A stretch of 64,000 nucleotides of DNA from a virus. Lineage: Duplodnaviria; Heunggongvirae; Uroviricota; Caudoviricetes. A program made the translations under genes and the position numbers. Positions 1,136 to 43,740 of the stretch are shown here, piece by piece. Under the pieces are notes generated by a model. The model was not told the origin of the DNA. It did not search any database and worked only from the letters and a program-made list of their open reading frames with translations. The stretch lies in the IMG/VR virus record IMGVR_UViG_3300047445_000122; one strand, 5' to 3'. Each line of letters opens with the position of its first letter. Within the stretch, counting starts at the first letter, position 1.

Positions 1136-1138
1136 ACC

Positions 1139-1188: not shown

Positions 1189-1230
1189 TCTCTTCATTGG
1201 TAGCGAAACTCAACTGAAAGGAACTACACC

Positions 1231-1545: not shown

Positions 1546-1559
1546 TCAAGGACAGACAA

Positions 1560-1595
1560 AGAAAAAGCCCCTGGTCTCCCAGGGGCTTTTGTTTT
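1560..1595. terminator. bidirectional rho-independent terminator
   Basis: AAAAAGCCCCTGG-tctc-CCAGGGGCTTTTGTTTT, located between convergent genes. Confidence 0.7.
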
Positions 1596-1800: not shown

Positions 1801-1820
1801 GTGTTCCTTGTGTAAGTTGA

Positions 1821-2603: not shown

Positions 2604-2760
2604 GAACTACTCCTGGTGGATTGGGGCAATTAAGGGCTTGCTGCACCCTTCTGAGTAGTTAGCGCTTAGAATCTGCCCTTCACGTTGATGTTGATGGTGA
2701 TCGTCTTGAGCTGCTTCAACAGCCGCCCGATCAAGTCACCAAGCTTGTCCCAGAACTTCT

Positions 2761-5680: not shown

Positions 5681-5699
5681 AGAGCGAGAGGAAGGAAAA

Positions 5700-9145: not shown

Positions 9146-12058
9146 TCAAGGCATCAAGATTGACTTGGCTTTCTCAAGCGCCGCTTCAAACTCCAGGGTG
9201 TCCCGGTCAAAGAAGCTGCCAAACAACACGGCCTTGTACTGTTCCTTGATGTATTGCTCACGGAACTTCTTGAAGTTGCCCTTGGCATGCTCATACAACT
9301 CATTGTGGTAGAAGCGGCCTGGTTTGGATGGCTCGAAGCCGGGAGCGAAGGTGGTGCGCTTCGCAAAGTCCATCGCCAGACGACTTGCCTCAACCAGAGA
9401 CAGCTTCACGCCGTAGTGTTGGGCGTATCGATAGCCGAAGGCGATCACAGGCGGAATGTCATATTGATCGTGATGATACAGAGCACCGCCATTCTTCAGC
9501 GAGTACAATGCCATCTTCAAGTGCTTGTTGATCCGGGACGGCGGGAGGTTCGTGGACTCCTGGAAATTCAGGAACTTGGACGACCACACTTTCGTGTAAT
9601 AATCCTTCTTCCGCAGGGCGATGTCTGTACCTGGGCTGTCCTTGTAGGCATTGGCCAAAGTGAACGCCTTGTAACGGCGCTGGAATTGACGGGAGCCCAC
9701 TTGGTTGTAACCAACGCTGTCAAGGAAGTCGGACAGAGGTGTGATATTCAACTCATCCTTGTACTTGTCAACGTTCTTGAAGTTCATCGGAGTGATGCGG
9801 TACAGGTTGAAGTTCTCTTCAGCCAGGGAGGCCACTGTGACCAACAATCCCATGTTCAGGCTCATTGGGAACTCGCGTGTCAACTCCATGTCCAGGTAGG
9901 ACTTCTCAGACTTGCCGTCATTGTACAACAAGAAGCCTGGTTCAACCTTGTCTGTCGAAGCCGGGATGGCTGAGAAGGAACTGCGCTGGTTGTTATTGAG
10001 ATTGGCCGGGGATTGCATACCATACTTCATGGAGCGTTTCTCAATCTCCAGGATGCGCATACCGCGCACAGAGACCTTCAGAGGATCGCGCTCAGCCTTC
10101 GGTACAGTCACAGTGCTCAGGCGGATGATCTTGGGTTTGTACTCCAGGCTCTGGCTCCAAGCCTCATAGAAGGCAAAGCCGTCTTCAGTGTCGGAACGCA
10201 CCAAAACCACACGGCAACGCAGCTCCCATGGATTGAGGGTCAAGCGGTCTTGAACATCAGCAATACCGCGTTGCTCACCCAGGGTGTTGCGCATGATCCA
10301 AGTGATGCGCCTTGACATCTCATTGTCGGTATCAACATACACAACAATGTCGTTGTGGCGGAAGTGTTGGTCATTCACCGGAACTTGAGACAGGTCGGTG
10401 TAGCTACCGTAACTTGGGCTGACAGTGCCATGGCTTGGAACCACAGAGTGGGTCGCCCGGAGGACAGGCAGGTATTGCTTGACATTGCGCTTGAAGAGAA
10501 CGCGCTGGGCAGTCATGTAGCCGCCCTGTTCCCAGTCACGAACTTGTTCAGGTTCCCCAGACAAGGCAGCGAAGTCAGGTTCCCAACCAGCAGCCACCAT
10601 AGCACCAATTTGGTCATTGCCACGAGCAGTGTACTCGATAGAGCGGTTGGTGGTGACGACTTGAGTGATGCCGTTGACAACCACATCCATGGTATCGGTC
10701 TCAACTGAAACATCAACAGCCACGTGTTTGGTTTCCTCAACCTCACGCTCCATGTGAGGGAATGTGATCTTGACGTCCTGGGTGAGGCGGCGCGGCTGGG
10801 ATGCGTTCAACTGCAGCTTGCCGTTGACTGGCAAGCCCTTGGAGTTGATCACAGGCGGGAGGTTGCAACCCATGTCCATTTCCCACTCGACCTCCTTCAT
10901 GGCAAAGATCATCTCACTGTTCACGCCATGGTTGGTCCAATCGCAGTAGTTCAACACACGTAACAGACTGGCGGACAGAGTCTGGATGCTGGTGTCGTCA
11001 GTGACCGCTCGAACGTGGTTCTGTAAGGTTGGGATGAACTCCTCAACCAACTTCTCCAGGCGCAGGAGGATGTTGTAACAAGTCTGAGCGTCATACTCCA
11101 GCGCTTCCCGGCTCGGCGGAATCTCAAGGTCACCGATCCCGAAGAACAGAGCAAACACTGAGTCCTTGGCGGATGGGGAGAACTTCTCAACTTGGCGGAT
11201 GACCTCACCAATGCGACCGGACAGACCTTCCACATACACGCCGCTTTCCTTCAGGGTGTTGATGTAGTCATCTTCCAAGTCGATGTTGATCAACTGGTTC
11301 ATGTCCAGAGGGTAGGACACGCCGCCCATGTTGGCCAGGAATTGACCATAATAGCGAGACAGACCCTGGGAGTGTACATACTTCCAGTCGGTGCCTTCAA
11401 ACTTGATGTCGCCGTAGTTCTCCCAGATGTCAGCGGAGTTTTGACCCACAACGATTGGGCGCGGCTCGAAGAAGAACAGCTGCGCCGCGACAGAGCGCGC
11501 ATAGGTCTCGTAACGCCCAACGCTGGACGGAACCTTGTACGTGATGCCGTTTGGCTCCTCCGTTGGCTTAGAGCCAATGTGAACCAGCTTCGGGATGCTA
11601 CCCTTGGCACGGAAGAATGAGAAGCTGTGTAGCTGGCCCTCGAACCGGCTCTCAATGATGTAGGAGTCAGTGACGGCGAACGGCGACTTGGAACCCAGAC
11701 CATAGGCACCAATGGACATGTTCTCGTTCTCTTTCGTGGACTCAAACAGGTTGCCCAGATAGCGCTTGACGTTCTCGATGGACAGGCCGGTGCCGTTGTC
11801 GCTGATGATCAGCTCGTGAGTCATGTGGCTCGGCAGATGGATGTGCCATTGACCAGGGGCCGTACCAGTGAGGCGTGCGAGGTCATGCATTGCGTCGCGG
11901 GCATTCGCGCCTAGCTCACGCACCACCGCATCTTCCTTCTTGGTATACAGTTTGTCAATCATCAGGGAGAACGACTTGCCGTTCATCTTGGCGCCCATGT
12001 CACTGACGCCCCCGATGTTGCTAACTGTTACGACTGATTCTTGTTCATGTGTGATCAT
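9146..12058 (-). CDS. large GHKL/Bergerat-fold ATPase-domain protein (970 aa), function unknown
   Basis: N-terminal N-box ELGANARDAMHD, G1 box ISDNGTGL and G2 box GAYGLGSKSPFAV (Hsp90/GyrB/MutL-like). No toprim or topoisomerase active-site motifs were found in the remaining 800 aa. Confidence 0.5.
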   Translation of the reverse strand: MITHEQESVVTVSNIGGVSDMGAKMNGKSFSLMIDKLYTKKEDAVVRELGANARDAMHDLARLTGTAPGQWHIHLPSHMTHELIISDNGTGLSIENVKRYLGNLFESTKENENMSIGAYGLGSKSPFAVTDSYIIESRFEGQLHSFSFFRAKGSIPKLVHIGSKPTEEPNGITYKVPSSVGRYETYARSVAAQLFFFEPRPIVVGQNSADIWENYGDIKFEGTDWKYVHSQGLSRYYGQFLANMGGVSYPLDMNQLINIDLEDDYINTLKESGVYVEGLSGRIGEVIRQVEKFSPSAKDSVFALFFGIGDLEIPPSREALEYDAQTCYNILLRLEKLVEEFIPTLQNHVRAVTDDTSIQTLSASLLRVLNYCDWTNHGVNSEMIFAMKEVEWEMDMGCNLPPVINSKGLPVNGKLQLNASQPRRLTQDVKITFPHMEREVEETKHVAVDVSVETDTMDVVVNGITQVVTTNRSIEYTARGNDQIGAMVAAGWEPDFAALSGEPEQVRDWEQGGYMTAQRVLFKRNVKQYLPVLRATHSVVPSHGTVSPSYGSYTDLSQVPVNDQHFRHNDIVVYVDTDNEMSRRITWIMRNTLGEQRGIADVQDRLTLNPWELRCRVVLVRSDTEDGFAFYEAWSQSLEYKPKIIRLSTVTVPKAERDPLKVSVRGMRILEIEKRSMKYGMQSPANLNNNQRSSFSAIPASTDKVEPGFLLYNDGKSEKSYLDMELTREFPMSLNMGLLVTVASLAEENFNLYRITPMNFKNVDKYKDELNITPLSDFLDSVGYNQVGSRQFQRRYKAFTLANAYKDSPGTDIALRKKDYYTKVWSSKFLNFQESTNLPPSRINKHLKMALYSLKNGGALYHHDQYDIPPVIAFGYRYAQHYGVKLSLVEASRLAMDFAKRTTFAPGFEPSKPGRFYHNELYEHAKGNFKKFREQYIKEQYKAVLFGSFFDRDTLEFEAALEKAKSILMP

Positions 12059-20647: not shown

Positions 20648-21724
20648 TTACTCCATAATGTTGAATTTGCGGAACGGCGACCAGGTCACGGCGCTCAGGA
20701 GGTCGCCTTGGAGGCGGCGCGTTACGCGGTGTTGGTAGATCACACCCTTCTTCGACAGGATATATCCATACACCAGAGCAGCGTATTCATACATCAGGTC
20801 GCCGTAACCGACAGCATAGCGATCAAAGATGTCTTCGATCTGGTTCCAGTGTTTGCCCCTCTCAGCTTCCAGGATTTCAGTGGTCTGGGTGATCATGGAA
20901 CCGTATTGAGCAATCAGCTCGCTGAAGAAGTGTTCCCACACCAGGTGACCGCCAACTGGACCAACCAGAGCAACATCATTCTCATGGAAGTTCTGTTTCT
21001 CCTCCAGGACAGCATCGAACTGGTCAATGAAGTCGCTGTAGACGTGGGCATTGGTGACGTGCCAGCGGTAGGAACCCAGCTTCACAGTCGGGTGGATCTT
21101 CTTCACCTCATTGTACATCAGCTCGTGGATGAAACTGAACTCGAATGGGTTGATCGAGCCAGTACCAAACAACAGGTCGCCAGAGCGTTGGATACACTTG
21201 GTGTGGAACTCACCATTCTCCACATAGAAGTGGAGCTCACGATTGCATGGGATGTCTTTTGGTACATGACCTTCACCATACACAGCTTCGATGGCTTCCA
21301 GGTTGTCGATGGTTGGGTCAGCAATCGTGACGAAGGAGCGGCGGGTGTTGATACCGTCATTGCGGAATTGATCAACAGCAGTCTGGAACTGGCTGTAACG
21401 ATGGAGGCGAGGGCCGTATGCGCCGTGCCAGGTAACTCCATCATCGCTGTAGTTCTTTGCGCGGGGCAGGAAGAAGTCCAGGTATGGGGTCACTGCGTTG
21501 GCTCCAGCCATGACCCAGAAGGTCTCAGCGATCAGCTGGAAGATGTTGGATTTGCGTCCGTGGAGGTGTAGGTGGCGGGAGCGGGGATTTTTGAACTCCA
21601 GCGTCGTGTCGTACATCGCCAGAGCGTACCCATTGCGGGTGTCTTGTTTGATACCTTCCTTTTGAAGGGCTTGGAAGGCTCGGTGGATTGTGTGTGAGAC
21701 GGTGTTGCCTCGGATAGTTCTCAT
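20648..21724 (-). CDS. ThyA-superfamily enzyme (thymidylate synthase or dUMP/dCMP hydroxymethylase) with about 90-aa C-terminal extension
   Basis: ThyA landmarks in order: RNGYA, ETFWVM, YGP, NTRRSFVT, catalytic PCN, QRSGDLLFG...N, AHVYS. The sequence continues a further 90 aa beyond the canonical fold. Confidence 0.75.
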   Translation of the reverse strand: MRTIRGNTVSHTIHRAFQALQKEGIKQDTRNGYALAMYDTTLEFKNPRSRHLHLHGRKSNIFQLIAETFWVMAGANAVTPYLDFFLPRAKNYSDDGVTWHGAYGPRLHRYSQFQTAVDQFRNDGINTRRSFVTIADPTIDNLEAIEAVYGEGHVPKDIPCNRELHFYVENGEFHTKCIQRSGDLLFGTGSINPFEFSFIHELMYNEVKKIHPTVKLGSYRWHVTNAHVYSDFIDQFDAVLEEKQNFHENDVALVGPVGGHLVWEHFFSELIAQYGSMITQTTEILEAERGKHWNQIEDIFDRYAVGYGDLMYEYAALVYGYILSKKGVIYQHRVTRRLQGDLLSAVTWSPFRKFNIME

Positions 21725-22093: not shown

Positions 22094-23275
22094 TCATTTC
22101 TGTTTCTTCTCTTTGGCGAGCAGGTAGCTGTTGGAGATAACCTTGAAGGTGAACTCCGGGCGGGTCGTGGACTTGTACACATGGCCCTCACGCTTGACGT
22201 CCTTGTTCATGCCTGGGCCTTCAGCCAGTTCCAACAGCTTTGGAACAATCAAGTCGCCCTCGTTCATCAGTTCACTCAGTGGACCAATGAAGTCGATTGG
22301 GGTGTGCTTGACCTCGAATTCATCGGCCATCGCTTGGCGCTCGGCGGCAGTCCAGTACTTCTGCTTGTCAATGTCATACACATCAAACAGGCGGAACTCC
22401 AGGCCTTTGACCTTCTCGTGGTTGTCCTGGATGTTAGGTGCCAGGAGCTCACCTTGGAGGGCATGGGAGCCGTCCAGGCATTCCAGAACTTGGATCAGTT
22501 GTTGGTTATTCACAGCGGCCCAGAAGTTCGAGCCGTCATCGTCGCGCAGTTGCAGGTTGCGCGAGCAAACAGCAGTCACAGGCTCCTTGTACAGACCGAA
22601 CTTGAGCTTGAAGCCGTGTATCAGCTTCCGAATCAAGCCTGGATTCGAGGCTTTGAACTTGAGGTTGATCGCTTCATTGAAGTGTTTCGAGTCCGGGCGA
22701 ACCAGATACGCAGTCAGGGAGGAGCCATCCAGCTTGATCGTGCGCTCAAACACCTCACCCTTGTGGGTGGCAGAGCTCACGGTTTGAACCATGTTCTGGA
22801 CACGCGGTTGATCGGTCTTCGACACGAAGGAAGGAAACACGCGGATTGCGCCGCCGCCATTCGATGCGCCGCCGTTGTTGGTCTTGGCTTCCTCAACAGG
22901 CTCCCACTTCACAATCTTCAGATCGCTGGTGACGTCATCGCCTTCTTTCCAGTTGATCAGCTTCAGTTCCTTGAACTCCTGGATTGGCATCAACAGACCC
23001 TGGGACAGAGTACCACGCAGCTTGATGGTCTTGACACGCATACCGCGACGGCCATCCCAGTTGCTAAAGCGCTCCTCAAAGGAAGCATAGCGTGGATCAG
23101 AGGCATCAAGCCAGCTGTCCACTTCCATGTACACGGCCAGATCGCCTTCCATGTACAGTCCTTTCTGGACCACACATTGCCAGCCGTCGATCAGGGCCAG
23201 TTGAATCTTGTCAGCGCCTTCGATAGGCAGCAGTTGTGAGATGCGGCGAATTGTCGCCAGCTTACGTTCAGTCAT
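22094..23275 (-). CDS. ATP-dependent RNA/DNA ligase-family nucleotidyltransferase with a 180-aa N-terminal domain (Rnl5/DraRnl-like architecture)
   Basis: Motif I KLDGSS about 180 aa from the N-terminus. Start reassigned to ATG 23275 (MTERK) with GGAG SD. Confidence 0.45.
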   Translation of the reverse strand: MTERKLATIRRISQLLPIEGADKIQLALIDGWQCVVQKGLYMEGDLAVYMEVDSWLDASDPRYASFEERFSNWDGRRGMRVKTIKLRGTLSQGLLMPIQEFKELKLINWKEGDDVTSDLKIVKWEPVEEAKTNNGGASNGGGAIRVFPSFVSKTDQPRVQNMVQTVSSATHKGEVFERTIKLDGSSLTAYLVRPDSKHFNEAINLKFKASNPGLIRKLIHGFKLKFGLYKEPVTAVCSRNLQLRDDDGSNFWAAVNNQQLIQVLECLDGSHALQGELLAPNIQDNHEKVKGLEFRLFDVYDIDKQKYWTAAERQAMADEFEVKHTPIDFIGPLSELMNEGDLIVPKLLELAEGPGMNKDVKREGHVYKSTTRPEFTFKVISNSYLLAKEKKQK

Positions 23276-23399
23276 TGATACTCCGGGAATAGGATATGAA
23301 GATGCGTCCTGGACACGCGAGAGCATGGCTAGGAGCAGTGAGGAGGGGATGACCCAAGGATAGGGTCACAAAGCGGGAGGAGACAGCCCGGAACGGGCC

Positions 23400-28564: not shown

Positions 28565-29611
28565 TTAAATCAGGCTGTGCGTTGTCGCTTTCGGCTGGGG
28601 AGCGCCTGCGCCGTTGTACTTCGAGCGTACTTGACCACCTTCCTTCAGCCGCAGATACTTGTCTGTTTCGCACAACAGGTTACTGCCGATGTTGTGGGCA
28701 TCTTCGAGGTGGAATTGTACAAGGGCTTCAACTTCAGCGCTGTAGCCATGCTGAATAGCAACTTGTGGCAATGCGACCTTCACCGCCTCCGACAGTTGAG
28801 CAAGCTCAAGGTAGTGTTGAGCTACCGGGATGGACTTGGTCAGTGGGCGACCATGAAGGCGATTCAAGAAGCGAACCGGGCCAGGGCCGATTGGCGCCCA
28901 GGTCTTCCAATCCGGGGCATCGCGCATGGTCATGTACTTCAAGTCTGCGATTTGCTGACCTGCCATGAAGTCACCGTTGGACTTGGCCTTGGTGAGGCGG
29001 CTGTGATAGCTCTGAAGGGTCTCCCCGGCTTCTGGCGGGCCAATTTCATAGATCGCCTTGAAGACGACATGAGCCAGGAAGTAGCGCTTGTCCTTGCACT
29101 TCTCGTACAACTCCAGGTCACCATCGACTTCAGCCGGGTTCCCGCAACCACGGATCATGTAGGCACCGGTGAACAGCTTGTCTTCCCTGCCGACAGCGCA
29201 GAAGCGGGTATACAGGTCATCAGCGTCATAGCCGTTCGTCAAGTCAGTCCAACCCAGCTTCAGGACGGTCGGAGACCAGTTGATCCAGCGCGCTACAGCG
29301 ACGTTGAACCACATGTCCTTGGAGTGATGATGTGGAGTGTAGAACTCCTTGAACAAAATCTCAGTCTCCTTGTCGTGCATGCGGTTGACGTTACAAAAAC
29401 GATGGTCGCGGATGAAGGTGTCTTCGGTCCACGGCTTGGGTTGACCTTCAGCTTTCTTGATGCGGACGGTCTCCCGCTCCAGTGCCCACTCACAGGCAGC
29501 GATCACATGGTTATGATAGTTGGCGGCGAACTCACCGTTGGCCTTGATCTGGTCTTCCAGGGTCTGGGACAGTTCAACAGCCTTGTCAAGTTTTTCAATC
29601 AGTGTGTTCAT
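28565..29611 (-). CDS. hypothetical protein (348 aa); candidate DNA-modification enzyme
   Basis: Conserved-looking globular protein with no motif I can name. Coupled by an ATGA overlap to the downstream P-loop kinase gene. Confidence 0.45.
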   Translation of the reverse strand: MNTLIEKLDKAVELSQTLEDQIKANGEFAANYHNHVIAACEWALERETVRIKKAEGQPKPWTEDTFIRDHRFCNVNRMHDKETEILFKEFYTPHHHSKDMWFNVAVARWINWSPTVLKLGWTDLTNGYDADDLYTRFCAVGREDKLFTGAYMIRGCGNPAEVDGDLELYEKCKDKRYFLAHVVFKAIYEIGPPEAGETLQSYHSRLTKAKSNGDFMAGQQIADLKYMTMRDAPDWKTWAPIGPGPVRFLNRLHGRPLTKSIPVAQHYLELAQLSEAVKVALPQVAIQHGYSAEVEALVQFHLEDAHNIGSNLLCETDKYLRLKEGGQVRSKYNGAGAPQPKATTHSLI

Positions 29612-34892: not shown

Positions 34893-34970
34893 TGGTGCCC
34901 GTTGCACGGATTTGAACCTGCGACCCCACCCTTACAGGGGGCGTGCTCTACCAGACTGAGCTAAACGGGC
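34893..34970 (-). tRNA. tRNA, probably Thr (anticodon TGT)
   Basis: Perfect acceptor stem GCCCGTT/AACGGGC plus encoded CCA, and a D-arm TAGCTCAGTCTGGTAGAGC. Anticodon loop reads CCTGTAA. T-stem is imperfect by eye. Confidence 0.5.
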
Positions 34971-34971
34971 T

Positions 34972-35046
34972 TGGCATACCGGGATGGGATCGAACCACCG
35001 ACACCAGGTTTTGGAGACCTGTGTTCTACCACTGAACTACCGATAC
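34972..35046 (-). tRNA. tRNA-Trp (CCA)
   Basis: Manual cloverleaf: anticodon loop CTCCAAA, T-loop TTCGATC, encoded CCA end. Confidence 0.7.
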
Positions 35047-35228
35047 ATTGTGTTGTTACTTATACTGCTTGGCCAGAGCCATCAGACCCTTCGCAGCTTC
35101 ATCGCCATAGGTCTTGAAGAATGCTTCAGTGGTCTTGTCATAGATGCTCTTGGCCAGAGCTGGATTCTTGTCGTCCAGAGCCTTAGCCAGCTGACTACCT
35201 TTGGCGGCGTGCGTATCCTTGTAGCGGA

Positions 35229-35516
35229 TCACTTGATCACAACCAGGATGTCTTCGTTGGACAGGATCAGATATTCCACGCCGTCAACCTTCACACCCTG
35301 ACCGGCGCCACGCTTGTGGACGATCTTGTCGCCCTTGTGGAAGGGTTCTGATTCACGCAGAGCGCCGGTGCTGACGTGGGAGACTTCAACCACAATGCCT
35401 TCAGAGACAGAAGCAGCAGGAGCCGGGGCGACGATGATACCGCCAGCTGAGGTTTCAGGGGCGGATTCACGCGTGATCACGCAGTAGCCTGGAGTTGGCT
35501 TGATTTGTTTGGACAT
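35229..35516 (-). CDS. GroES-like co-chaperonin (Hsp10; T4 gp31 analogue)
   Basis: IVHKRGAGQGVKVDGVEYLILSNEDILVVI matches the GroES C-terminus. Start set to ATG 35516 (MSKQIKPT) with AAGGAAA SD, because the longer track ORF would run into tRNA genes. Confidence 0.7.
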   Translation of the reverse strand: MSKQIKPTPGYCVITRESAPETSAGGIIVAPAPAASVSEGIVVEVSHVSTGALRESEPFHKGDKIVHKRGAGQGVKVDGVEYLILSNEDILVVIK

Positions 35517-35534
35517 GGTTTCCTTTTGATTGAA

Positions 35535-35608
35535 TGGAGGCGTGTGGGTGAATCGAACACCCGTCTTAGGCTTTGCAGGCCCAGACCTAACCACTCAGAC
35601 AACACGCC
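35535..35608 (-). tRNA. tRNA-Cys (GCA)
   Basis: Perfect acceptor stem, anticodon loop CTGCAAA, T-arm GGGTG TTCGATT CACCC. D-arm is unusual. Confidence 0.6.
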
Positions 35609-35614
35609 ATTGAT

Positions 35615-35697
35615 TGGTGGGGATACAGGGACTCGAACCCAGACGCCGAAGCCGGAGCGTTTGAAACTCCTGTGTCTACCAATTTCACCATATCCCC
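35615..35697 (-). tRNA. tRNA-Leu (CAA), class II
   Basis: Anticodon stem GGAGT/GCTCC with loop TTCAAAC, and a long variable arm. Confidence 0.6.
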
Positions 35698-35818
35698 AAA
35701 TTTCAACACCATCCTTACGCCCTCGCCCATCTATCGTGACAAGTTAGCAGAACTTCGGTGCACCTCACTTCAAGCAGTGCTGGCTACGCTGCACGGACTG
35801 CCGAATGATGTTGAAATT

Positions 35819-35894
35819 TGGAGCGGGTGACAGGTCTCGAACCTGCGCATGCCGGCTTGGAAGGCCAGTGCTTTACCAACTTAGCTACACCCGC
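35819..35894 (-). tRNA. tRNA-Gly (TCC)
   Basis: Perfect acceptor stem GCGGGTG/CACCCGC, anticodon loop CTTCCAA, encoded CCA. Confidence 0.8.
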
Positions 35895-35896
35895 AA

Positions 35897-35972
35897 TGGC
35901 GCCCAGGGCCGGAATCGAACCAGCGACACGTGGATTTTCAGTCCACTGCTCTACCAACTGAGCTACCTGGGC
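35897..35972 (-). tRNA. tRNA-Phe (GAA)
   Basis: Acceptor stem GCCCAGG/CCTGGGC, anticodon loop CTGAAAA, T-loop TTCGATT. Confidence 0.8.
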
Positions 35973-36107
35973 ATTGAAGCGTTTTGCATGGAAGTAGACT
36001 TCAATGCTATTCATGGACAATATACGCTGACTAGAACTGTAGAGACAGGGATGAGAACGTACAATGCTGCTTCACCACATATCAGGGAGCGACCCAGAAC
36101 ATTCAAT

Positions 36108-36193
36108 TTGGTGCGAACGGAGGGACTCGAACCCATCACGCCTAGTGGCACATCCCCCTCAAGGATGCGTGTCTGCCAATTTCACCACGTTCG
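36108..36193 (-). tRNA. tRNA-Leu (GAG), class II
   Basis: Anticodon stem CATCC/GGATG with loop TTGAGGG, and a long variable arm. Confidence 0.65.
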
Positions 36194-36269
36194 CATTGCC
36201 CCGGAGCCTGAAGAAACCATCCGGGCAGACCTGCTTCAGATCAAGTCTGGGGAGCAACCCCGCTAGAAC

Positions 36270-36524
36270 TCAATTCAACAAGCGACTCAACAACCGCTGG
36301 CTCTTGTTTCCATGTTTGGGTGAGTTGATGGTGACGTCCGGGAAGTCTGACTTGTTGAGCTGACGCCCAATCCGAGTCTCAAGACAACCCACGCACAACA
36401 TACCAACTATCGACCCAACAACCTTCATCCACAAATCAGTGTTGATGAAGTAGTGCTCGTTGGCCTTGCCGGTGTCTACACAGCAATCCAAACACAGCCA
36501 CTTTCGTCTTGATTTACACGCCAT
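36270..36524 (-). CDS. small Cys-rich protein (84 aa) embedded in the tRNA array
   Basis: The CLDCC...CVGC pattern suggests a zinc-ribbon-like fold. No tRNA overlaps it. Confidence 0.35.
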   Translation of the reverse strand: MACKSRRKWLCLDCCVDTGKANEHYFINTDLWMKVVGSIVGMLCVGCLETRIGRQLNKSDFPDVTINSPKHGNKSQRLLSRLLN

Positions 36525-36541
36525 GTGACTCCCATATCAAT

Positions 36542-36618
36542 TGGCGCGCCGAAGTGGACTTGAACCACTGACCCTGGGATTAGAAGGCCCATGCTCTATC
36601 CAGCTGAGCTACCGGCGC
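36542..36618 (-). tRNA. tRNA-Arg (TCT)
   Basis: Acceptor stem GCGCCGG/TCGGCGC, anticodon loop CTTCTAA (one mismatched closing pair), T-loop TTCAAGT. Confidence 0.55.
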
Positions 36619-36629
36619 GGCGCTGTTCG

Positions 36630-37151
36630 TTATGGAAGAATTATAAGTGAGGAGGTCAGAGGAGCAGAAACTTGTACTTGCTTCTCAACCACAACGTAGA
36701 AGCGGGAGAATGCCGCTGCCTTCTTGGACACTGGATACGGTCGCCTCATCAACTGACACTTAACCTTAGTCCAGAATCCCACCTTGATATCCACCAATTC
36801 AGTGATGTCAGCGGCGAAGCGGAACAGACCTCCAGTGGTATCAGCATCCAACATCTTACGCAGTTGTTCGCCGCCAGGAGTGTTGAAGACTGAGATCAGC
36901 ATGGTCTTGTCATGATCCATCTTGGTGACCAGGAAGTCGGCATATTCACTCGACTTGTCCAGACTGCCATAGATCACATCCACGAGGCCGTATTGAGCCT
37001 TGGTAGGGCGCTTACCCTCTCCCAGCCATTCCACGTTTTGAGCTTCCTGGGCTTTGTTCAGGGCATCGATGGCGTCAGTGTAGTCCAAGTCTGCCAGTGC
37101 GCCACGAGGCTCGAACTGGACTTGGTACTCACCAATGATTTCTTGTAGCAT
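36630..37151 (-). CDS. hypothetical protein (173 aa) within the tRNA array
   Basis: Complete ORF flanked by tRNA genes. Confidence 0.45.
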   Translation of the reverse strand: MLQEIIGEYQVQFEPRGALADLDYTDAIDALNKAQEAQNVEWLGEGKRPTKAQYGLVDVIYGSLDKSSEYADFLVTKMDHDKTMLISVFNTPGGEQLRKMLDADTTGGLFRFAADITELVDIKVGFWTKVKCQLMRRPYPVSKKAAAFSRFYVVVEKQVQVSAPLTSSLIILP

Positions 37152-37231
37152 ACACGCCCTCTTGATGTTCGGAGCAGCCTTCCACTGAAGGAGGTCAAGG
37201 AAAGGAGGAAAACTTGACGGCTGCGGTTGAT

Positions 37232-37309
37232 TGGTCTCCGCGACAGGATTTGAACCTGCGACCCCTCGCTCCCAAAGCGAGTGCTCTACACGGGCTGAGC
37301 TACACAGAG
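37232..37309 (-). tRNA. tRNA-Pro (TGG)
   Basis: C1-G72 acceptor stem (typical of tRNA-Pro), anticodon stem CTCGC/GCGAG with loop TTTGGGA. Confidence 0.7.
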
Positions 37310-37506
37310 AATGTTAGGTGTCAATGCTGGATTGTTGTGGAAGGATTTCAAGTGTTATGCCCTTGTTCTCCAACATTGACGGGGATGGTCGGCAGACTAC
37401 CCTTATGTAGTGTGACATTCCTCCAACCGGACATATTCTAACGCATGTTGGCGTCTAGTCTATCCGGCGGAATGCCGTTTTGGTTTTAAACTACTGCCGT
37501 TTGATC

Positions 37507-37582
37507 TTGGTGGTAGGGGCAGGGATCGAACCTGCGACCTGTGGATTATCGGTCCACTGCTCTGCCAACTGAGCTACCCCAC
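37507..37582 (-). tRNA. tRNA-Ile (GAT)
   Basis: Perfect anticodon stem GTGGA/TCCAC with loop CCGATAA. Note C at position 33. Confidence 0.6.
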
Positions 37583-37597
37583 CGGGTTGGTACTTAG

Positions 37598-37685
37598 ACC
37601 ATACATAACAACACTCGCGCCTTCTCTGAACATGTAGGCACTGTAGTGGGTTTCTGTTCCTCAGGAGGAGTGTTGTTATGTATGG
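37598..37685. repeat. 18-bp perfect inverted repeat (CCATACATAACAACACTC / GAGTGTTGTTATGTATGG) with a 52-nt loop
   Basis: Seen directly in the sequence. The right arm overlaps the 3' end of tRNA-Ser(TGA) by 3 nt. Confidence 0.6.
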
Positions 37686-37775
37686 CGGAAATGGTGAGAC
37701 TCGAACTCACACAGCGGTTGCCCGCCCTTCAGTTTTCAAGACTGCTGCCGCTAGGCCAACTCGGCTAACATTTCC
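37683..37775 (-). tRNA. tRNA-Ser (TGA), class II
   Basis: Acceptor stem GGAAATG/CATTTCC, anticodon loop CTTGAAA, long variable arm. Confidence 0.65.
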
Positions 37776-37776
37776 G

Positions 37777-37868
37777 TGGCGGAGACTGTTGGATTTGAAC
37801 CAACGGAGCCACTTGCGTGACTCGGTGCCTTAGCAGGGCACTGCAATAGACCGCTCTGCCAAGTCTCC
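37777..37868 (-). tRNA. tRNA-Ser (GCT), class II
   Basis: Acceptor stem GGAGACT/AGTCTCC, anticodon stem GTGCC/GGCAC with loop CTGCTAA, long variable arm. Confidence 0.7.
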
Positions 37869-38221
37869 AGTGTTTGGTGTGATCTCCTTGATACCGCCTC
37901 AGACCCTGTCTATGCATTCGGGCGTCACACTCTTCAGGTTTCAATCCCGGTTACAGCGTCCGGGGAACTAACGCCAGGCCCACTAGACGGAGGCTGGTGC
38001 TCTGTTGTACTGACTCTCTCAAATTGCACTTGAGGGCGTGTGCGCGGGAGTCTGCTTTTGCCCTGAATTCTGTCCACCCGAAAATCAAGTACATCCACTG
38101 TCCGCTGACTGGAAGCGGGGTTCGTATCAATCTTGATGTTGGGAAAGGGTGTCTCCATCTGATTCCAACGTTGCCTCCAACCCCTCTCGACCAGTCAGCC
38201 CGATACTCATTGGATATTCTG

Positions 38222-38296
38222 TGGCCGGAAGGACAGGAATCGAACCTGTGTACCAAGGCTATCCCGCCCCTGCTCTACCAACTGAGCTACCTCCCG
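38222..38296 (-). tRNA. tRNA-like gene with unresolved anticodon (possibly degenerate)
   Basis: Good acceptor, D and T arms (ACAGG TTCGATT CCTGT) and an encoded CCA. The anticodon arm does not fold canonically by eye. Confidence 0.4.
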
Positions 38297-38369
38297 GAAG
38301 CACAACCCATATTCCTGCAATCAGCATGCGTTCCCAATGGATTGTGGCCGTTCTATCACGACTGTCAAC

Positions 38370-38447
38370 TGGTTGCGACGGGCTGGATTTGAACCAGCGA
38401 CCTGAGGATTATGAGTCCTCTGCTCTACCTGACTGAGCTACCTCGCC
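38370..38447 (-). tRNA. tRNA-Met-like (CAT) with an imperfect acceptor stem
   Basis: Anticodon stem GAGGA/TCCTC with loop CTCATAA. The 3' end GCAACCA resembles an initiator tRNA. Two acceptor-stem mismatches including 1-72. Confidence 0.5.
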
Positions 38448-38454
38448 TTTGATC

Positions 38455-38530
38455 TGGCGCCGTGAGCTGGATTTGAACCAACGTGACACCCGCAACATGG
38501 GTGCATCCTAAGCCTCTAGATGATCACGGC
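38455..38530 (-). tRNA. tRNA with a GTT anticodon (Asn-like) and an atypical anticodon loop
   Basis: Perfect acceptor stem GCCGTGA/TCACGGC. Anticodon stem CACCC/GGGTG with loop ATGTTGC. Confidence 0.4.
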
Positions 38531-38618
38531 AAAACTACTGAAGTGAGAATCCTCTACATCGCGGCGGCAAGGACGCATCAGGCGTCCAATGTAGTTGACT
38601 CTCGCTTCAGGAGTCTGA

Positions 38619-38694
38619 TGGCGTCTCCAACGAGATTTGAACTCGTGTACCCACCTTGAAAGGGTGGTGTCCTAGACCGCTAGACGATGGAGAC
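38619..38694 (-). tRNA. tRNA-Glu (TTC)
   Basis: Near-identical architecture to E. coli tRNA-Glu: TCGTCTAGCGGTCTAGGACACC..CTTTCAA. Confidence 0.8.
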
Positions 38695-38696
38695 AG

Positions 38697-38778
38697 TGGA
38701 AGGGGCGACAGGATTTGAACCTGTGACGTATGCTGGGATCAAAACCCAGTGCCTTGAACCGAACTTGGCGACACCCCT
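38697..38778 (-). tRNA. tRNA-Gln (TTG)
   Basis: Anticodon stem CTGGG/CCCAG with loop TTTTGAT. A1-U72 acceptor stem. Long D-loop. Confidence 0.55.
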
Positions 38779-38786
38779 ATTGTTTT

Positions 38787-38863
38787 TGGCTCCCCAGGCT
38801 GGACTCGAACCAGCGACCAACACATTAACAGTGTGCTGCTCTACCAAACTGAGCTACTGAGGA
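38787..38863 (-). tRNA. tRNA-Asn (GTT)
   Basis: Anticodon loop CTGTTAA, D-arm TAGCTCAGTTTGGTAGAGC, T-loop TTCGAGT. Confidence 0.75.
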
Positions 38864-38920: not shown

Positions 38921-38953
38921 ATTATAGACCACTTCTGCTAAGAAGTAAAGCTC
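38921..38953 (-). promoter_or_regulatory. promoter of the tRNA array
   Basis: Minus strand reads GCTTTACTT..GTGGTCTATAAT, about 55 nt upstream of the first (highest-coordinate) tRNA. The 24-nt leader is identical to the one at 43684..43711. Confidence 0.55.
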
Positions 38954-39890: not shown

Positions 39891-39989
39891 GCCATTTCCT
39901 TTATGGTTGTTTTCTTTCGCGCCGCCCCGAATGAGGCGACGGAAAGAATTATAAACCACAATATCAACGGCGTAAAGATCAATATTTTA

Positions 39990-40511
39990 TCAACCCATCT
40001 TCTTCCCCGCTTGGATCAGGCGTTTCCGCTTGATCTTGAAGCTGTCGGATGAAGTCCCGCCGAACATCTCAGCATTCGCATACAGTTCGGCCCAGGCAGT
40101 GAGGTACAACATGTGAGAGAGTGGATGTTTCCACAACTCCACTACGTCATCCCCGCGCCGGGTGTGGAACTCCATGTCCATCCTCATGAGTTCAGCAACG
40201 GTATTGTCCTCAGGATAGAGGGCCAGCCATTGAGCAGCGCTCGCTTGGGCATGATCCGGGAACCTACCAGACCCGTCAGCAACAAGTGGCTTCCCGCAGT
40301 CGTGATAGATTTGATAGGTCTCCAGGATCAAGTCATCGTGGACATCGATCTTGCTTTTCAAGAAGGAGTAGTGAGGGCAGGTATCATCAGTCAGCTTCAG
40401 ATACGCCTCCCGCACCCTATAACCATGCTCTAAGACATTCAAGCTGGTTGTTTGGGACGTTTCCTGCATCAGCTGCTCTAAAGCGCCTATAGTGGCCGCT
40501 AGATGTCTCAT
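39990..40511 (-). CDS. HD-domain phosphohydrolase
   Basis: H...HD motif (HYSF...IYHDCGK). Start ATG 40511 overlaps the stop of the PTH2-like gene (ATGA). Confidence 0.5.
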   Translation of the reverse strand: MRHLAATIGALEQLMQETSQTTSLNVLEHGYRVREAYLKLTDDTCPHYSFLKSKIDVHDDLILETYQIYHDCGKPLVADGSGRFPDHAQASAAQWLALYPEDNTVAELMRMDMEFHTRRGDDVVELWKHPLSHMLYLTAWAELYANAEMFGGTSSDSFKIKRKRLIQAGKKMG

Positions 40512-40813
40512 TTCGTACCTCCCTTGAACAGGCGGTACTTCTTGAAGGCAGGGCGCTGATGTTGATACACAGGCTCCGACGCGAATGAGGTGAACCCATA
40601 GTCCCAATCGGGCTCATGGAACCTCACGAACTTTATCCCGCTGTCTTGAAGTTTGGCATACGCCTTCTCCAGTTCATCCTTGTTCTTGACTTGGATGACA
40701 ATCAGCGAGTTGGGTTCAGCTGTCGGATTCGGGAAGGCCAGGCCGCTCTCTTGGGCAGCGTGGCAAGACTGAACCAGTATTTGCTCAATAGGCAAGTCCA
40801 TGCGAATGAACAC
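40508..40813 (-). CDS. peptidyl-tRNA hydrolase, PTH2 family-like
   Basis: VQSCHAAQ (PTH2 motif is QCxHAA) and LIVIQVKNKDELEKAYAKL...GIKF parallel the PTRH2 family core. Probable GTG start. Confidence 0.5.
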   Translation of the reverse strand: MFIRMDLPIEQILVQSCHAAQESGLAFPNPTAEPNSLIVIQVKNKDELEKAYAKLQDSGIKFVRFHEPDWDYGFTSFASEPVYQHQRPAFKKYRLFKGGTK

Positions 40814-40874
40814 ATAGATCCATGCCTTGTCAGTGCACCTACTGGTTGATGATTGTTTCTTGGGATTTCATGGA

Positions 40875-41222
40875 TTACTCCTGAGGTTTGGTTGAGAAAA
40901 TACTGCGATATGTGTAGCTCTGATGGCGTCCACTTCCGTGGGTCTTGCGAATCATGAGGTTCCACTTGTTGAAAGCGAAGCACTCATCATTGACCGTCTT
41001 GCCCCACACAAACATACTGATCAGGAAGCCAACCAGATTCTGGGCAATCACCAGAGGCGAGAGGAACGCTGCGACAGTGAGGTGGACGATCATGACGCCG
41101 ATAGTTTGGGCGACATTGTGAGTCTTGGCCTCCATAGTGAACGGAGTCCAGGTTGCCATCGTCTCAGAGAACACTGTCAGAACGACGCCGACGCAATAAG
41201 CCAAGAAAATCAAGCTAGACAT
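40875..41222 (-). CDS. small 3-TM membrane protein (115 aa)
   Basis: Start reassigned to ATG 41222 (MSSLIFL) with GGAG SD. Three hydrophobic helices. Confidence 0.4.
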   Translation of the reverse strand: MSSLIFLAYCVGVVLTVFSETMATWTPFTMEAKTHNVAQTIGVMIVHLTVAAFLSPLVIAQNLVGFLISMFVWGKTVNDECFAFNKWNLMIRKTHGSGRHQSYTYRSIFSTKPQE

Positions 41223-41350
41223 AAAATCTCCATTTGTTGACCACATTGGAACACCCTCAACTCCCATCAACCGCGCACTTGCGGTCTATGAAGATCGACC
41301 TCTGTCAAGGCCATTTCTGAGTGACAGCTCATCTCAAGGACGTTCTAATG

Positions 41351-41428
41351 TGGTGCGTCGTACAGGAATCGAACCCGTGACCTGTCTGGTTAGGCGCCAG
41401 ACTGCTCTGCCAACTGAGCTAACAACGC
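41351..41428 (-). tRNA. tRNA-Arg (CCT)
   Basis: Acceptor stem GCGTTGT/ACGACGC, anticodon stem TCTGG/CCAGA with loop CGCCTAA, T-loop TTCGATT. Confidence 0.5.
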
Positions 41429-41432
41429 ATTA

Positions 41433-41519
41433 TGGTGGGCGTGGTTGGATTTGAACCAACGAAGTACAGAGACACCGGATTTACAGTCCAGCGCAGATTA
41501 CCGCATCTGCAACACACCC
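41433..41519 (-). tRNA. tRNA-Tyr (GTA), class II
   Basis: Anticodon loop CTGTAAA, long variable arm, acceptor stem GGGTGTG/CACGCCC. Confidence 0.65.
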
Positions 41520-41557
41520 ATTACTGCTGGCTACAGTGTATATAGCCAGCAGGTTTC

Positions 41558-41761
41558 TTACATTTCCGACAACGCCGATTCGATCTGGCGCTTGCTATGC
41601 TTGTCCCGCTTTGGGACTACATGAGCCCCGCCCTTGCGAAGGATATTGCTATCCTCACTTGGCTTGTGACGGGGCTTCATAGCCTGTTGACGCTGTTCAC
41701 GGCTGCTCTTCGTCATGACCGCGTCTTGCACGAAGCCATTGCGATACTGGTTGGTACGCAT
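41558..41761 (-). CDS. small basic protein (67 aa)
   Basis: Lys/Arg-rich and probably disordered; coupled to the upstream gene. Confidence 0.3.
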   Translation of the reverse strand: MRTNQYRNGFVQDAVMTKSSREQRQQAMKPRHKPSEDSNILRKGGAHVVPKRDKHSKRQIESALSEM

Positions 41762-42186
41762 TACTGAGCCTTCACCAGTTCGTAAGTGGCAACCACATCG
41801 CGGTCTTTCCAGTTGAACTCTGGGTACAACCGGTTGATGTCAGCCATGCGACCGGAACTGATATCCAGAATCACCAGACCAGGATGCAAGCTCTTGCTCT
41901 GGTCATAGATGTCCTTGGCTTCCTTCAGACCACTGTTGGTGATCGTGCGGATCATCTTGATCGTTGGCACTGCCCACTCATTGTTAGTGGTGTAGGCAGG
42001 GTAGTTGATCGTGACGCGATAGCGCTCACCGAAGGCTTCTGGCTTTTCCAGTCGCTTTTGGAGCGAGTTCAAGTCCACGGTGTTAACGTACATGGGTTCA
42101 TCATCGCCAGCACGATGACGGTGGCGATTCACCTCAGGGAGGATCATCGCAGCCAGTACCTTGGCTTCATTATCAGTCAGGTTCAC
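41761..42186 (-). CDS. protein with a ribosomal L7/L12 C-terminal-domain-like segment
   Basis: TIKMIRTITNSGLKEAKDIYDQSK versus E. coli L7/L12 [25 protein letters not shown]. Confidence 0.45.
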   Translation of the reverse strand: MNLTDNEAKVLAAMILPEVNRHRHRAGDDEPMYVNTVDLNSLQKRLEKPEAFGERYRVTINYPAYTTNNEWAVPTIKMIRTITNSGLKEAKDIYDQSKSLHPGLVILDISSGRMADINRLYPEFNWKDRDVVATYELVKAQ

Positions 42187-42236
42187 AGTTCTCTTTCAAG
42201 AAAGAGGCTCCAGGCCTTCCCGGAGCCGGTAGTTGA

Positions 42237-42896
42237 TTACAGAGCCAGCTTGATGTGGGTAGTGGCGTTCACAGCCGACAGGGCGTAGTCGATTTCATCG
42301 GTCACGGCTGCGATCTCATCTTCCAGAGTCTTGATCAGGGTCTTGACGTCCAGTGGGTCGATCATGTTCAGCTCGTGCATGTCCATGATCGCATCCTTGG
42401 TGGAAGTGATCAGAGCCTGGTTCTGCTCGACTGCGGACTTGTTCTTCACATCAGTGCCCAGCAGGCGGTCGATGGAGCCTTGAACATTGGTCTCGATCTC
42501 CAGGCGGGAGCGTTCCATGTTGTTGGCGGCTTGTGCCAGCTGCAGCTTCAGAACGGCGACCAGGGATTGCTTGTAGGCAACAACATTCTTCATGTCGATT
42601 GCTTCCACGATGGACATTTCCTTGCCATTGATGGTGACCTTGGTTTTGACGTTCGCTTCAGCGATGGCGAACTTGATCGCACTGCGGCGCTTGATCAGAT
42701 CGTCCAGGGACTGATGATTGGACTTGATCGCGGCGGCGACTTCGGCGGCGTCCTTGAACTGGGCCAGAATCGGCTTCGGTTCCTTGCGACCCTTGGTCAG
42801 GGACACGAACAGGGTGGTTGGCTTGGTAGCCGCCAGGATACGTGCATCCAGGGTCTTCAGCTCGACCAGAGCGCGGTTCAGCAGAATTTCAGACAT
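42237..42896 (-). CDS. coiled-coil hypothetical protein (219 aa)
   Basis: Complete ORF downstream of a roughly 800-nt untranslated leader. Confidence 0.45.
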   Translation of the reverse strand: MSEILLNRALVELKTLDARILAATKPTTLFVSLTKGRKEPKPILAQFKDAAEVAAAIKSNHQSLDDLIKRRSAIKFAIAEANVKTKVTINGKEMSIVEAIDMKNVVAYKQSLVAVLKLQLAQAANNMERSRLEIETNVQGSIDRLLGTDVKNKSAVEQNQALITSTKDAIMDMHELNMIDPLDVKTLIKTLEDEIAAVTDEIDYALSAVNATTHIKLAL

Positions 42897-43325: not shown

Positions 43326-43706
43326 ATTAAAGACCCTCATGGGAAGGTATTTAATGATGCGGTCTGACGACTACAGTGGTTGGTCACCGTAGCGGTTCCG
43401 ACAGACCTGATGAAGTTGGGATGGCCGTCCCATTCACGCGTCTGGTCAGCTGAAAGCACGACCTCGGCGGGAACTTCACTTAACATCACCTGGGAGCCCA
43501 AAGCTCTTCGCAGTATCTCCCAGTATCGGGTGGTTGAGCACTAAGCCACCCTAGGTCATTCTCTCCGACAGGCTATGCGGAGTCAGCCTCACCGTGGGAC
43601 TACGGCGACTTGTTTGAGGCTGTACCAGATTCCACGACCCTTGCTCAAGGGTGTCGTTTAGTCCCTCTTGTTATTCGGTAACTTCATTTGCTCGACGTGA
43701 AGAGAA

Positions 43707-43740
43707 TTATACTGTATCCATCCAACCACGTAAAGGGGAC
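43707..43740 (-). promoter_or_regulatory. promoter driving the roughly 800-nt untranslated leader upstream of gene 42237..42896
   Basis: Minus strand reads CCCCTTTACGTG..ACAGTATAAT, followed by the same 24-nt leader (TCTCTTCACGTCGAGCAA) as the tRNA-array promoter. Confidence 0.45.

Follow-up and report, generated by a model that had tools for sequence, protein, structure and literature searches.

The known systems closest to the locus described here come from several directions. HD-type domains are found in enzymes that handle the acceptor end of transfer RNA (tRNA): the acceptor helix of tRNA is contacted by the body domain of class II tRNA nucleotidyltransferase (PMC3925840), and binding to the acceptor arm has been proposed for the GlyRS-beta HD domain, though its His-Asp doublet has been lost (PMC8464048). 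The PTH2 proteins of jumbo phages have been interpreted as ribosome-rescue or tRNA-recycling enzymes (PMC7824862). Amber-suppressor tRNAs, with the anticodon CUA, are encoded by phages XacN1 and RsoM2USA, for which the authors found no known target or purpose (PMC5852040, PMC8504454). Phage proteins with a bL12 domain are known from varied contexts and have been acquired repeatedly (Mizuno et al. 2019, PMC6375957). We analysed positions 39,990 to 42,186 of a 64,000-nucleotide stretch of phage DNA (IMG/VR record IMGVR_UViG_3300047445_000122; the whole stretch is called the window). This locus encodes a PTH2-like protein, an HD-like protein, a tRNA related to amber suppressors, and a protein with a motif of the ribosomal stalk protein L7/L12. 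In related genomes the PTH2/HD pair is linked non-randomly to tRNA(CUA), while the L12-like gene is a sporadic accessory that lies outside the conserved set.

Every gene between 38.9 and 44.3 kb of the window is on the minus strand. The parts at issue, in the direction of transcription, are:

41761..42186, minus strand: protein of 141 aa with an L12 C-terminal-domain (CTD) motif, residues ~66-100 homologous to helices alpha4-alpha5 of the bL12 CTD
41433..41519, minus strand: tRNA-Tyr(GUA), called by ARAGORN
41351..41428, minus strand: tRNA called Arg(CCU) by ARAGORN, orthologue of the amber-suppressor tRNA(CUA) of related phages
40508..40813, minus strand: PTH2-fold protein of 101 aa (start GTG 40813) or 97 aa (start ATG 40801)
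39990..40511, minus strand: HD-like protein, 173 aa from ATG 40511, with the ligand set H...HD...H...D...H intact

The PTH2-like and HD-like genes are closely coupled. The stop codon of the former and the start codon of the latter overlap as ATGA, with TGA within it, as was read directly from the sequence (...AAGGGAGGTACGAAATGAGAC), and a Shine-Dalgarno-like AAGGGAGG stands just upstream of the overlap. The coupling proposed in a first-pass annotation of the window is therefore borne out. The two genes were adjacent, in both gene orders, in 29 GenBank phage records, which include CBB, GAP32, BF, XbC2, fHe-Yen9-04, Arash, ME3, RsoM2USA, pT24, XacN1, Xoo-sp13, and CM1. They also occur as fusions, in the order PTH2-HD (P0121, P0145, and BPT24_235 of pT24) and in the order HD-PTH2 (ORF364 of XacN1 and Xoo-sp13_327). 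When IMG/VR was searched with the HD-like profile, 80 loci were found, which formed 54 clusters at 80% identity; in 52 of these clusters a PTH2-like gene lay on the same strand within 1.3 kb of the HD-like gene. Among 185,579 reference genomes, the HD-like family was found at 11 loci only, all of them in metagenome-assembled genomes (MAGs). The pair is a widespread module that is essentially restricted to phages. The HD-like protein has 288 homologues and matched phrog_14850 (E 3e-47); the PTH2-like family comprises at least 30 proteins, and its member in the window matched phrog_34073 (E 4e-33).

Two further observations concern the surroundings of the module. In about nine lineages the two genes of the module are separated by an optional third, coding for a Cys-rich protein of ~190-240 aa with the motif GDCTCxPCSCxKCHAE (L011 10336..10896, which is RsoM2USA_92; also L025, L032, L033, L035, L044, L066, L093, and L094); it is absent from the window. 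In locus L006, a gene for RtcB and an HD_4 gene (small alarmone hydrolase-like) were seen at 993..3229, ~5 kb from the module, whereas the window has instead an Rnl-type ligase 17 kb off.

The tRNAs around the module were called with ARAGORN. A tRNA(CUA) was found directly upstream of the pair in L004, L006, L008, L016, L017, L018, and ME3, at 0.5 kb downstream of it in Arash, and at 2.6-3 kb from it in pT24 and CBB. The GenBank annotations of ME3, pT24, and CBB hold the same tRNAs(CUA). In XacN1 and RsoM2USA the pair lies away from the tRNAs, and the CUA suppressors are encoded elsewhere in the genome. A tRNA(CUA) was present within 5 kb of the module, and always on its strand, in 34 of the 54 IMG/VR clusters. 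In this dereplicated set CUA accounted for 42 of 222 flanking tRNAs; it was the nearest tRNA in 29 of the 43 loci having any tRNA, made up about half of the tRNAs in loci with three or fewer, and was the sole tRNA in many loci (e.g., L035, L049, L062, L069, L076, L084). When tRNA positions were permuted within loci, CUA was the tRNA nearest the module in 18 of 23 informative loci, compared with 6.0 expected (P=1.4e-8); this test ignores how common CUA is and asks only whether it is the tRNA nearest the module. All 58 distinct CUA tRNAs had a canonical loop, which read YU-CUA-AA in 55 of them. The linkage of the PTH2/HD module to tRNA(CUA) is non-random. It had been missed by the first-pass annotation.

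A similar neighbourhood was seen in MAGs. In nine MAG loci (eight of cyanobacterial lineage, of which six are from Obscuribacterales, one from Melainabacteria, and one labelled Cyanobacteria; and one gammaproteobacterial) a lone tRNA(CUA) lies within ~200 nt after the HD-like gene. On the MAG contigs L101-L109, the HD-like gene and tRNA(CUA) are at about 5000-5800 in each locus. The neighbours in L104 look chromosomal, and comprise a reductase of non-ribosomal-peptide-synthetase type, Uma2, a methyltransferase, and a NadR-like gene.

Phages that have recoded a stop codon carry tRNA(CUA) (PMC13037316) with the same canonical YU-CUA-AA loop, and RF2 or aminoacyl-tRNA synthetase partners have been reported for them, in place of the HD/PTH2 pair seen here. 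Unlike the recoded phages, the isolates that carry the present cassette (CBB, GAP32, ME3, Arash, XacN1, RsoM2USA) have annotations that follow the standard code. The suppressor tRNAs of recoded phages are also said to have been the subject of a study by Borges and co-workers in 2022. In the literature we found nothing that connects a suppressor tRNA with Pth2 or an HD-domain protein in phages. The association of suppressor tRNA, PTH2-fold protein, and HD protein thus appears to be undescribed; its components are of known kinds, while the combination and the tRNA specificity are apparently new.

Some loci have two tRNA(CUA) genes beside the module (L025, L027, L028, L032, L033, L057, L068, L070, L095). 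In L025, L027, L032, and L095, one copy carries A73 as its discriminator and the second carries G73, a difference that suggests two kinds of suppressor, each inserting its own amino acid. Nearest-neighbour comparison was also tried as a means of finding the amino-acid identity of the CUA tRNAs, and gave no assignment; the best matches were spread over 18 tRNA types (anticodons).

The window's own tRNA at 41351..41428 was compared with the suppressor of L004. The acceptor, D, and T arms of the two are nearly identical, and the synteny is the same in both phages: tRNA-Tyr, then the suppressor or its orthologue, then the PTH2/HD pair. The anticodon arm of the window tRNA has two extra bases (GUCUGG-CGCCUAA-CCAGAC), which give a 6-bp stem and the loop CGCCUAA, with G at position 33. 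The CUAA is kept, shifted within the loop. In an amber suppressor the anticodon loop has 7 nt, and U33 is followed by CUA at positions 34-36; the window tRNA differs from this, and ARAGORN reads its anticodon as CCU. From its arms and its place, this 'tRNA-Arg' is taken to be a mutated orthologue of the suppressor. It may be a reader of AGG with an unusual G33, a reader of the four-base codon partner of CCUA, or a decaying gene. It may be noted that some tRNAs in the arrays of related phages (L016 9480..9556 and 10692..10767; L008 16158..16237) were called by ARAGORN with anticodons of four bases (catt, atga, aaaa).

The PTH2-like ORF (open reading frame) contains VQSCHAAQ, and the first-pass annotation had recognized it by the motif QSCHAA. 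The match of this protein to Pfam PTH2 (PF01981) was sub-threshold (18.9 bits for a cutoff of 23; E 0.0019), and TIGR00283 gave 15.4 bits against 82. PF01981 was matched at E<0.01 by 20 of 30 members of the family, with a best E of 4.5e-6. A profile of the family found Pth2 in the PDB at E 0.26-0.74 only. An AlphaFold2 (AF2) model computed on the family alignment had a mean confidence (pLDDT) of 80. When the model was compared with the PDB by Foldseek, the top 13 matches were all Pth2/Bit1, at a probability of 0.97-1.00 and a template-modelling (TM) score of 0.62-0.72 in twelve of them; for the chain at rank 12 the values were 0.82 and 0.48. Since the family matches PF01981 and these 13 structures are all Pth2/Bit1, the assignment of the predicted structure to the Pth2 alpha/beta fold is sound. 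The homology expected from the motif thus holds at the level of the fold, and in the profile search first suggested as a check most family members match PF01981, while the window protein itself stays below the cutoff.

The active site was examined in an alignment (A8) in which the PTH2-like family was set against three Pth2 sequences of solved structure, along with two fused relatives. The PTH2-like protein resembles Pth2 (M. jannaschii 2zv3, S. solfataricus 1xty, human Bit1 1q7s) in its fold, in its size of ~100 aa, and in the Q..H motif of helix 1: Q15 and H18 are invariant in the family and align with Q22 and H25 of S. solfataricus. The column of S. solfataricus K18 holds Q11, within a nearly invariant PIEQ where Pth2 has GKGK. 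The column of D86 holds P68; the DAGxT loop with Asp86 and Thr90 (EDAGKTQLEPG in Pth2) is gone, and a shorter EPDWDYG stands instead. One fused relative, P0121, keeps both the canonical Lys and the canonical Asp, and matches 2zv3 at E 1e-9. We take K18 to be the critical lysine of the S. solfataricus enzyme, and D86 and T90 presumably have roles of their own; those of all three residues were reportedly described by Fromant et al. in 2005. Unlike Pth2, the window subfamily is always paired with or fused to an HD-like protein and falls below the Pfam threshold. Judged by its aligned residues, it is a divergent subfamily of the PTH2 fold with a non-canonical active site. As the Lys column is Gln and the Asp loop is replaced, esterase activity of the protein should not be assumed.

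The HD-like protein matched Pfam HD (PF01966) below the curated threshold (13.3 bits for a cutoff of 22; E 0.1), and only 7 of 45 homologues matched PF01966 at E<0.1, the best at 9e-4. In the alignment of 45 sequences, the putative metal ligands H29, H70, D71, H87, D112, and H116 were invariant. The AF2 model of the protein (pLDDT 96.7) has the all-alpha HD fold. The call of an HD hydrolase, which had been made at first pass, stands at the level of fold and motif. The best PDB match of the family profile was the class II tRNA nucleotidyltransferase of Aquifex aeolicus, with YHDCGKP...F.xH facing FHDIGKP...F.EH, and the top 15 Foldseek matches of the model were all chains of the same enzyme. 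The alignment is confined to chain residues ~297-356 onward, which is the body region, and the HD-like protein has no Pol-beta-type head or neck domain.

The nearest counterparts of the HD-like protein are thus two. With the body domain of the A. aeolicus nucleotidyltransferase (PDB 3WFO-3WFS) it shares HDxGKP...F.xH at equal spacing, and with the HD domain of GlyRS-beta (8IE2) it can be likened as an HD-type domain that contacts the tRNA acceptor helix. It differs in being a stand-alone protein, whereas these domains belong to a chain with head and neck or to a synthetase subunit, and in being encoded beside a specific tRNA gene. Unlike GlyRS-beta, it retains the His-Asp doublet and further His and Asp ligands. 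The HD domain of the E. coli CCA-adding enzyme is reportedly (Yakunin et al. 2004) a 2',3'-cyclic phosphodiesterase, 2'-nucleotidase, and phosphatase. It would be a further example of an HD phosphohydrolase at the tRNA 3' end, the likeness being a functional analogy drawn without comparison of sequence or structure. Because the neighbours of the HD-like protein are tRNA enzymes and the His-Asp doublet is kept, it is probably a tRNA-docking HD domain that is still a metal-dependent hydrolase.

A split CCA-type enzyme, with head and body on separate proteins, was considered as a general explanation and rejected. Short (~220 aa) tRNA nucleotidyltransferases with head and neck only are encoded ~2 kb from the module in ME3 (ME3_203; L010 7079..7741) and in L083 (2463..2981), and near the pair nowhere else; a tblastn search with ME3_203 found no head-domain nucleotidyltransferase gene in the window. 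There are hints of a split enzyme in the lineages of ME3 (L010) and L083 only.

The explanation that we consider best, and to which we give about an even chance, has two parts: a tRNA(CUA)-linked PTH2/HD cassette of large phages and, independent of it, an L12-like accessory gene. The cassette would comprise a tRNA gene of the amber-suppressor type and, along with it, a divergent PTH2-fold protein and a metal-dependent HD hydrolase of the type found in tRNA enzymes. The HD protein would dock on the acceptor arm of tRNA, as the body of class II nucleotidyltransferase and the GlyRS-beta HD domain do, and hydrolyse a phosphoester at or near the 3' end. Its PTH2-fold partner would bind the ester-linked aminoacyl or peptidyl group on that 3' end, or cleave it in a non-canonical manner. 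The preferred client would be the neighbouring suppressor tRNA and not bulk tRNA, and the purpose may be maturation, resetting, or control (gating). A more specific proposal is tentative, and we hold it to be rather doubtful: that the HD-like protein, in most cases together with the PTH2-fold protein, serves as a dedicated and hitherto unrecognized factor that matures, resets, or gates the amber-suppressor tRNA in large phages and in MAGs of cyanobacterial lineage (mostly Obscuribacterales), that standard-code phages use regulated UAG read-through, or the rescue of ribosomes that stall there, during infection, and that the window tRNA is a natural variant with a remodelled anticodon arm, possibly a CCU or four-base CCUA reader.

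Should the suppressor tRNA prove to be the target of the HD/PTH2 pair, the pair would represent an accessory enzyme of a new, tRNA-specific kind, and it might serve as a tool in engineered amber suppression or as a means of controlling it. The suppressor tRNAs of standard-code phages such as XacN1 and RsoM2USA are without known purpose, and a conserved protein partner provides a handle by which a role may be found. A testable role is gained for phrog_14850 and phrog_34073, both PHROG families without an assigned function, and annotations as 'peptidyl-tRNA hydrolase' that rest on fold alone are corrected. The L12-like gene by itself is of modest interest; the key point is the three-part association and not the L12 mimic.

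Several results weigh against the two-part explanation or against pieces of it. No tRNA(CUA) was found within 5 kb of the module in 20 of the 54 clusters, and as the clusters are phylogenetically related, the statistics given above overstate their independence. In the nine MAG loci with the HD-like gene and tRNA(CUA) the PTH2-like gene was undetectable, so the three parts are not obligatorily together. With Gln in the Lys column and Pro in that of Asp86, the PTH2-like protein may hydrolyse nothing. The tRNA of the window lacks the canonical CUA loop, yet both proteins are intact. For the L12-like protein, the part that is demonstrably homologous is short (see below). The use of stop codons also gives no sign of a read-through programme. 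The share of TAG among stops was 13.5% in CUA loci and 9.5% elsewhere, on crude ORF calls, so that no avoidance was seen, and no read-through targets were found on the coding strands of the window; TAG recoding or avoidance was rejected on these grounds. Nor were TAG stops enriched in the module genes themselves (8 of 110 for HD-like, 1 of 96 for PTH2-like), and auto-regulatory read-through was rejected likewise.

The first alternative is close to what had been proposed at first pass, when the PTH2-like, HD, and L12-like genes were read as one toolkit for tRNA repair and rescue of stalled peptidyl-tRNA. It would make the pair a generic recycling and repair set, in which an ordinary peptidyl-tRNA hydrolase and a general 2',3'-cyclic phosphodiesterase/phosphatase for damaged tRNA ends, comparable to the HD domain of the E. 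coli CCA enzyme, work with RNA ligase against the host's tRNA-targeting defences, the suppressor tRNA being a mere neighbour in the array. In the window, Arash, CBB, and L006-L018 the pair does lie within a tRNA array or next to one; the jumbo-phage PTH2 has been read in the same sense (PMC7824862); an RNA ligase is encoded in the window, and RtcB near the pair in L006. We nevertheless find this alternative unlikely. The canonical Pth2 Lys and the Asp loop are not conserved, which makes rescue of peptidyl-tRNA by the standard Pth2 mechanism doubtful, and phage CBB encodes, apart from the pair, a PTH2 of canonical type (CBB_392). A single anticodon, CUA, is involved in the link, even where there is no array and CUA is the lone tRNA, and the permutation result speaks for the same specificity. 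The RNA ligase of the window lies 17 kb from the pair, and no conserved link between them was seen. As for the third gene of the supposed toolkit, ~100 related loci have the PTH2/HD pair but no L12-like gene. The observations of the first-pass annotation are confirmed, and its interpretation is partly supported.

A second alternative, for which we see only a small chance, is a control or antidote device. Here the pair would deacylate a potentially harmful suppressor tRNA, or trim or block its 3' end, and so limit the duration or the amount of read-through, the genes travelling as an addiction-like or self-regulating unit. The parts are adjacent, on the same strand, and often duplicated, and this in very different genomes, including contexts that resemble bacterial chromosomes; moreover, TAG stops are in normal use, so that unrestrained suppression would hit ~10% of genes. 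Against such a device, the proteins of the window have stayed intact despite the loss of the canonical CUA loop from its tRNA, and the structural neighbours of the proteins are tRNA-binding scaffolds and not nucleases.

It is less probable still that the HD protein hydrolyses a small nucleotide (of the alarmone, cyclic-nucleotide, or dNTP type) for anti-defence or metabolism, the linkage being an incidental hitch-hiking in a mobile cassette. Its nearest neighbours in structure and sequence are tRNA enzymes, it is fused in both domain orders to a fold that binds the tRNA end, and genomes that are unrelated to one another share the linkage of its gene to a tRNA gene.

To return to the two-part explanation, its second part is the L12-like gene. 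The first-pass annotation had seen, just beyond the two tRNA genes, a protein whose C-terminal half matches the factor-binding face of L7/L12, and a likeness is indeed found, in a shorter segment. Pfam Ribosomal_L12 was matched below its cutoff (22.3 bits for 25.9; E 1.7e-4) over residues 73-96 only, and the matches in Pfam, NCBIfam, and PHROG all fell on residues 72-97. All ten PDB sequence matches at E<=10 were L7/L12. With hhalign, an L12-CTD-like profile was matched over residues 66-100 only (probability 97%, E 5e-11). A phmmer search of 1.8e9 representative proteins gave 28 matches (best E 1e-10); all were proteins with one to eight L12-CTD-like repeats, aligned through those. MAFFT places strands beta1, beta2, and beta3 plausibly in the L12-like protein, and the L004 orthologue aligns from beta1; the significant alignment spans residues 66-100 or 72-99 only, and ~30 residues are demonstrably homologous.

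Within this segment, the helix pair alpha4-alpha5 of the bL12 CTD is present with its factor-binding residues. V73, I76, K77, R80, G86, L87, K88, E89, A90, K91, and D92 correspond to V66, I69, K70, R73, G79, L80, K81, E82, A83, K84, and D85 of E. coli L12, and K65 is replaced by A72. We take V66, I69, K70, R73, L80, E82, and K84 to be the factor-binding face of the E. coli protein. Homology to the L12 N-terminal domain was rejected: Ribosomal_L12_N had no match in the protein in Pfam, and against full-length E. coli L12 hhalign aligned only residues 66-97. On the aligned residues, the homology to the C-terminal helix pair of bL12 is real but limited.

The gene is rare. A word-based homologue search of 5.8e9 proteins found only the protein itself, and tblastn against 50,697 phage records gave no match. 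It was seen only in the window phage and in L004/L005, where syntenic orthologues are 30% identical by MAFFT and profile methods; BLASTP gave no alignment with the L004 orthologue. The statement that it is not a standard T4-like gene agrees with this distribution. The known bL12-domain proteins of phages (PMC6375957) and the tandem-repeat proteins P0152-P0178 likewise have the L12-CTD motif in a non-ribosomal protein, with the GTPase-contacting residues conserved and a patchy distribution consistent with repeated acquisition. The window protein differs in having a single copy of the motif in 141 aa, and in its N-terminal half of ~60 aa, which is unrelated to those proteins and shared only with the L004 orthologue. 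It is a sporadic accessory gene outside the conserved cassette, and a new member of the known phage bL12-domain class. As there is no N-terminal domain for anchoring in the stalk, the protein, if active, would work off the ribosome stalk, as a binder of EF-G, EF-Tu, IF2, or RF3 or as a decoy for them. That it should be a genuine replacement stalk subunit in host ribosomes is most improbable: its factor-binding residues are conserved and ribosome fractions have been seen to contain one phage protein with a bL12 domain, but it matches neither the N-terminal domain nor the hinge of L12, only residues 66-100 are demonstrably homologous, the same motif is repeated in many proteins that are not ribosomal (the N-termini of some being hydrophobic and like membrane anchors), and tagged phage bL12 was unusable for ribosome purification (PMC6375957).

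The other features of the region, and the ligase discussed above, are:

42237..42896, minus strand: phrog_1491 protein, 219 aa, first in the direction of transcription
42227..42206, minus strand: terminator-like GC-rich hairpin with a T-rich tail, separating the phrog_1491 gene from that of the L12-like protein, from a consensus scan only
41558..41761, minus strand: basic ORF, 67 aa, its ATG overlapping the stop of the L12-like gene (TAATG)
40875..41270, minus strand: hydrophobic ORF, 131 aa (115 aa in the Logan gene call), predicted membrane protein
22094..23326, minus strand: RNA ligase, with PF09414 and the PHA02142 OB domain

The ligase had been placed at 22094..23275 in the first-pass annotation; the family was correctly named, and the end was slightly short. 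The homologue of the basic ORF in L016 is 136 aa long, and the tRNA-Tyr(GUA) is syntenic with a tRNA-Tyr upstream of the suppressor tRNA in L004 and L016. The product of the hydrophobic ORF is probably a membrane protein. A search for its homologues found none, and the ORF is absent at the corresponding position in relatives; its membership in the cassette is uncertain. After the HD-like gene, ARAGORN found an array of 18 tRNAs (34893..38863). PADLOC, run on six proteins of the region, gave no match to any defence-system model.

A promoter-like TTTACG/T-N17-TATAAT recurs on the minus strand at 43734..43706, 39976..39948, and 38949..38921, as judged by a consensus scan only, and the scan found no such site on that strand between 42999 and 39976. 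For this reason a single transcription unit may take in the L12-like gene and the two tRNAs along with the PTH2/HD pair. Downstream of the site at 43734..43706, in an 870-nt gap free of ORFs, the segment 43123..43221 (minus strand) gave a sub-threshold, full-length match to the Y RNA-like family YrlA (RF02553; 41.6 bits, gathering score 69, E 1e-7), in which the tRNA-like T-arm and D-arm parts were aligned.

The window phage is a distant T4-like virus. Megablast against the 50,697 phage records found no relatives of the region at the nucleotide level; the phage encodes DnaB, UvsX, and baseplate genes, and its rIIA shares 38% identity with the rIIA of Ralstonia phage RSP15. At 28565..29611 (minus strand) the helical domain of a 5-hydroxymethyldeoxyuridine DNA kinase was matched (PF18723, E 6e-33), and a thymidylate-synthase-like gene is nearby (20648..21724). 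From these genes, the phage probably hypermodifies the thymidine of its own DNA.

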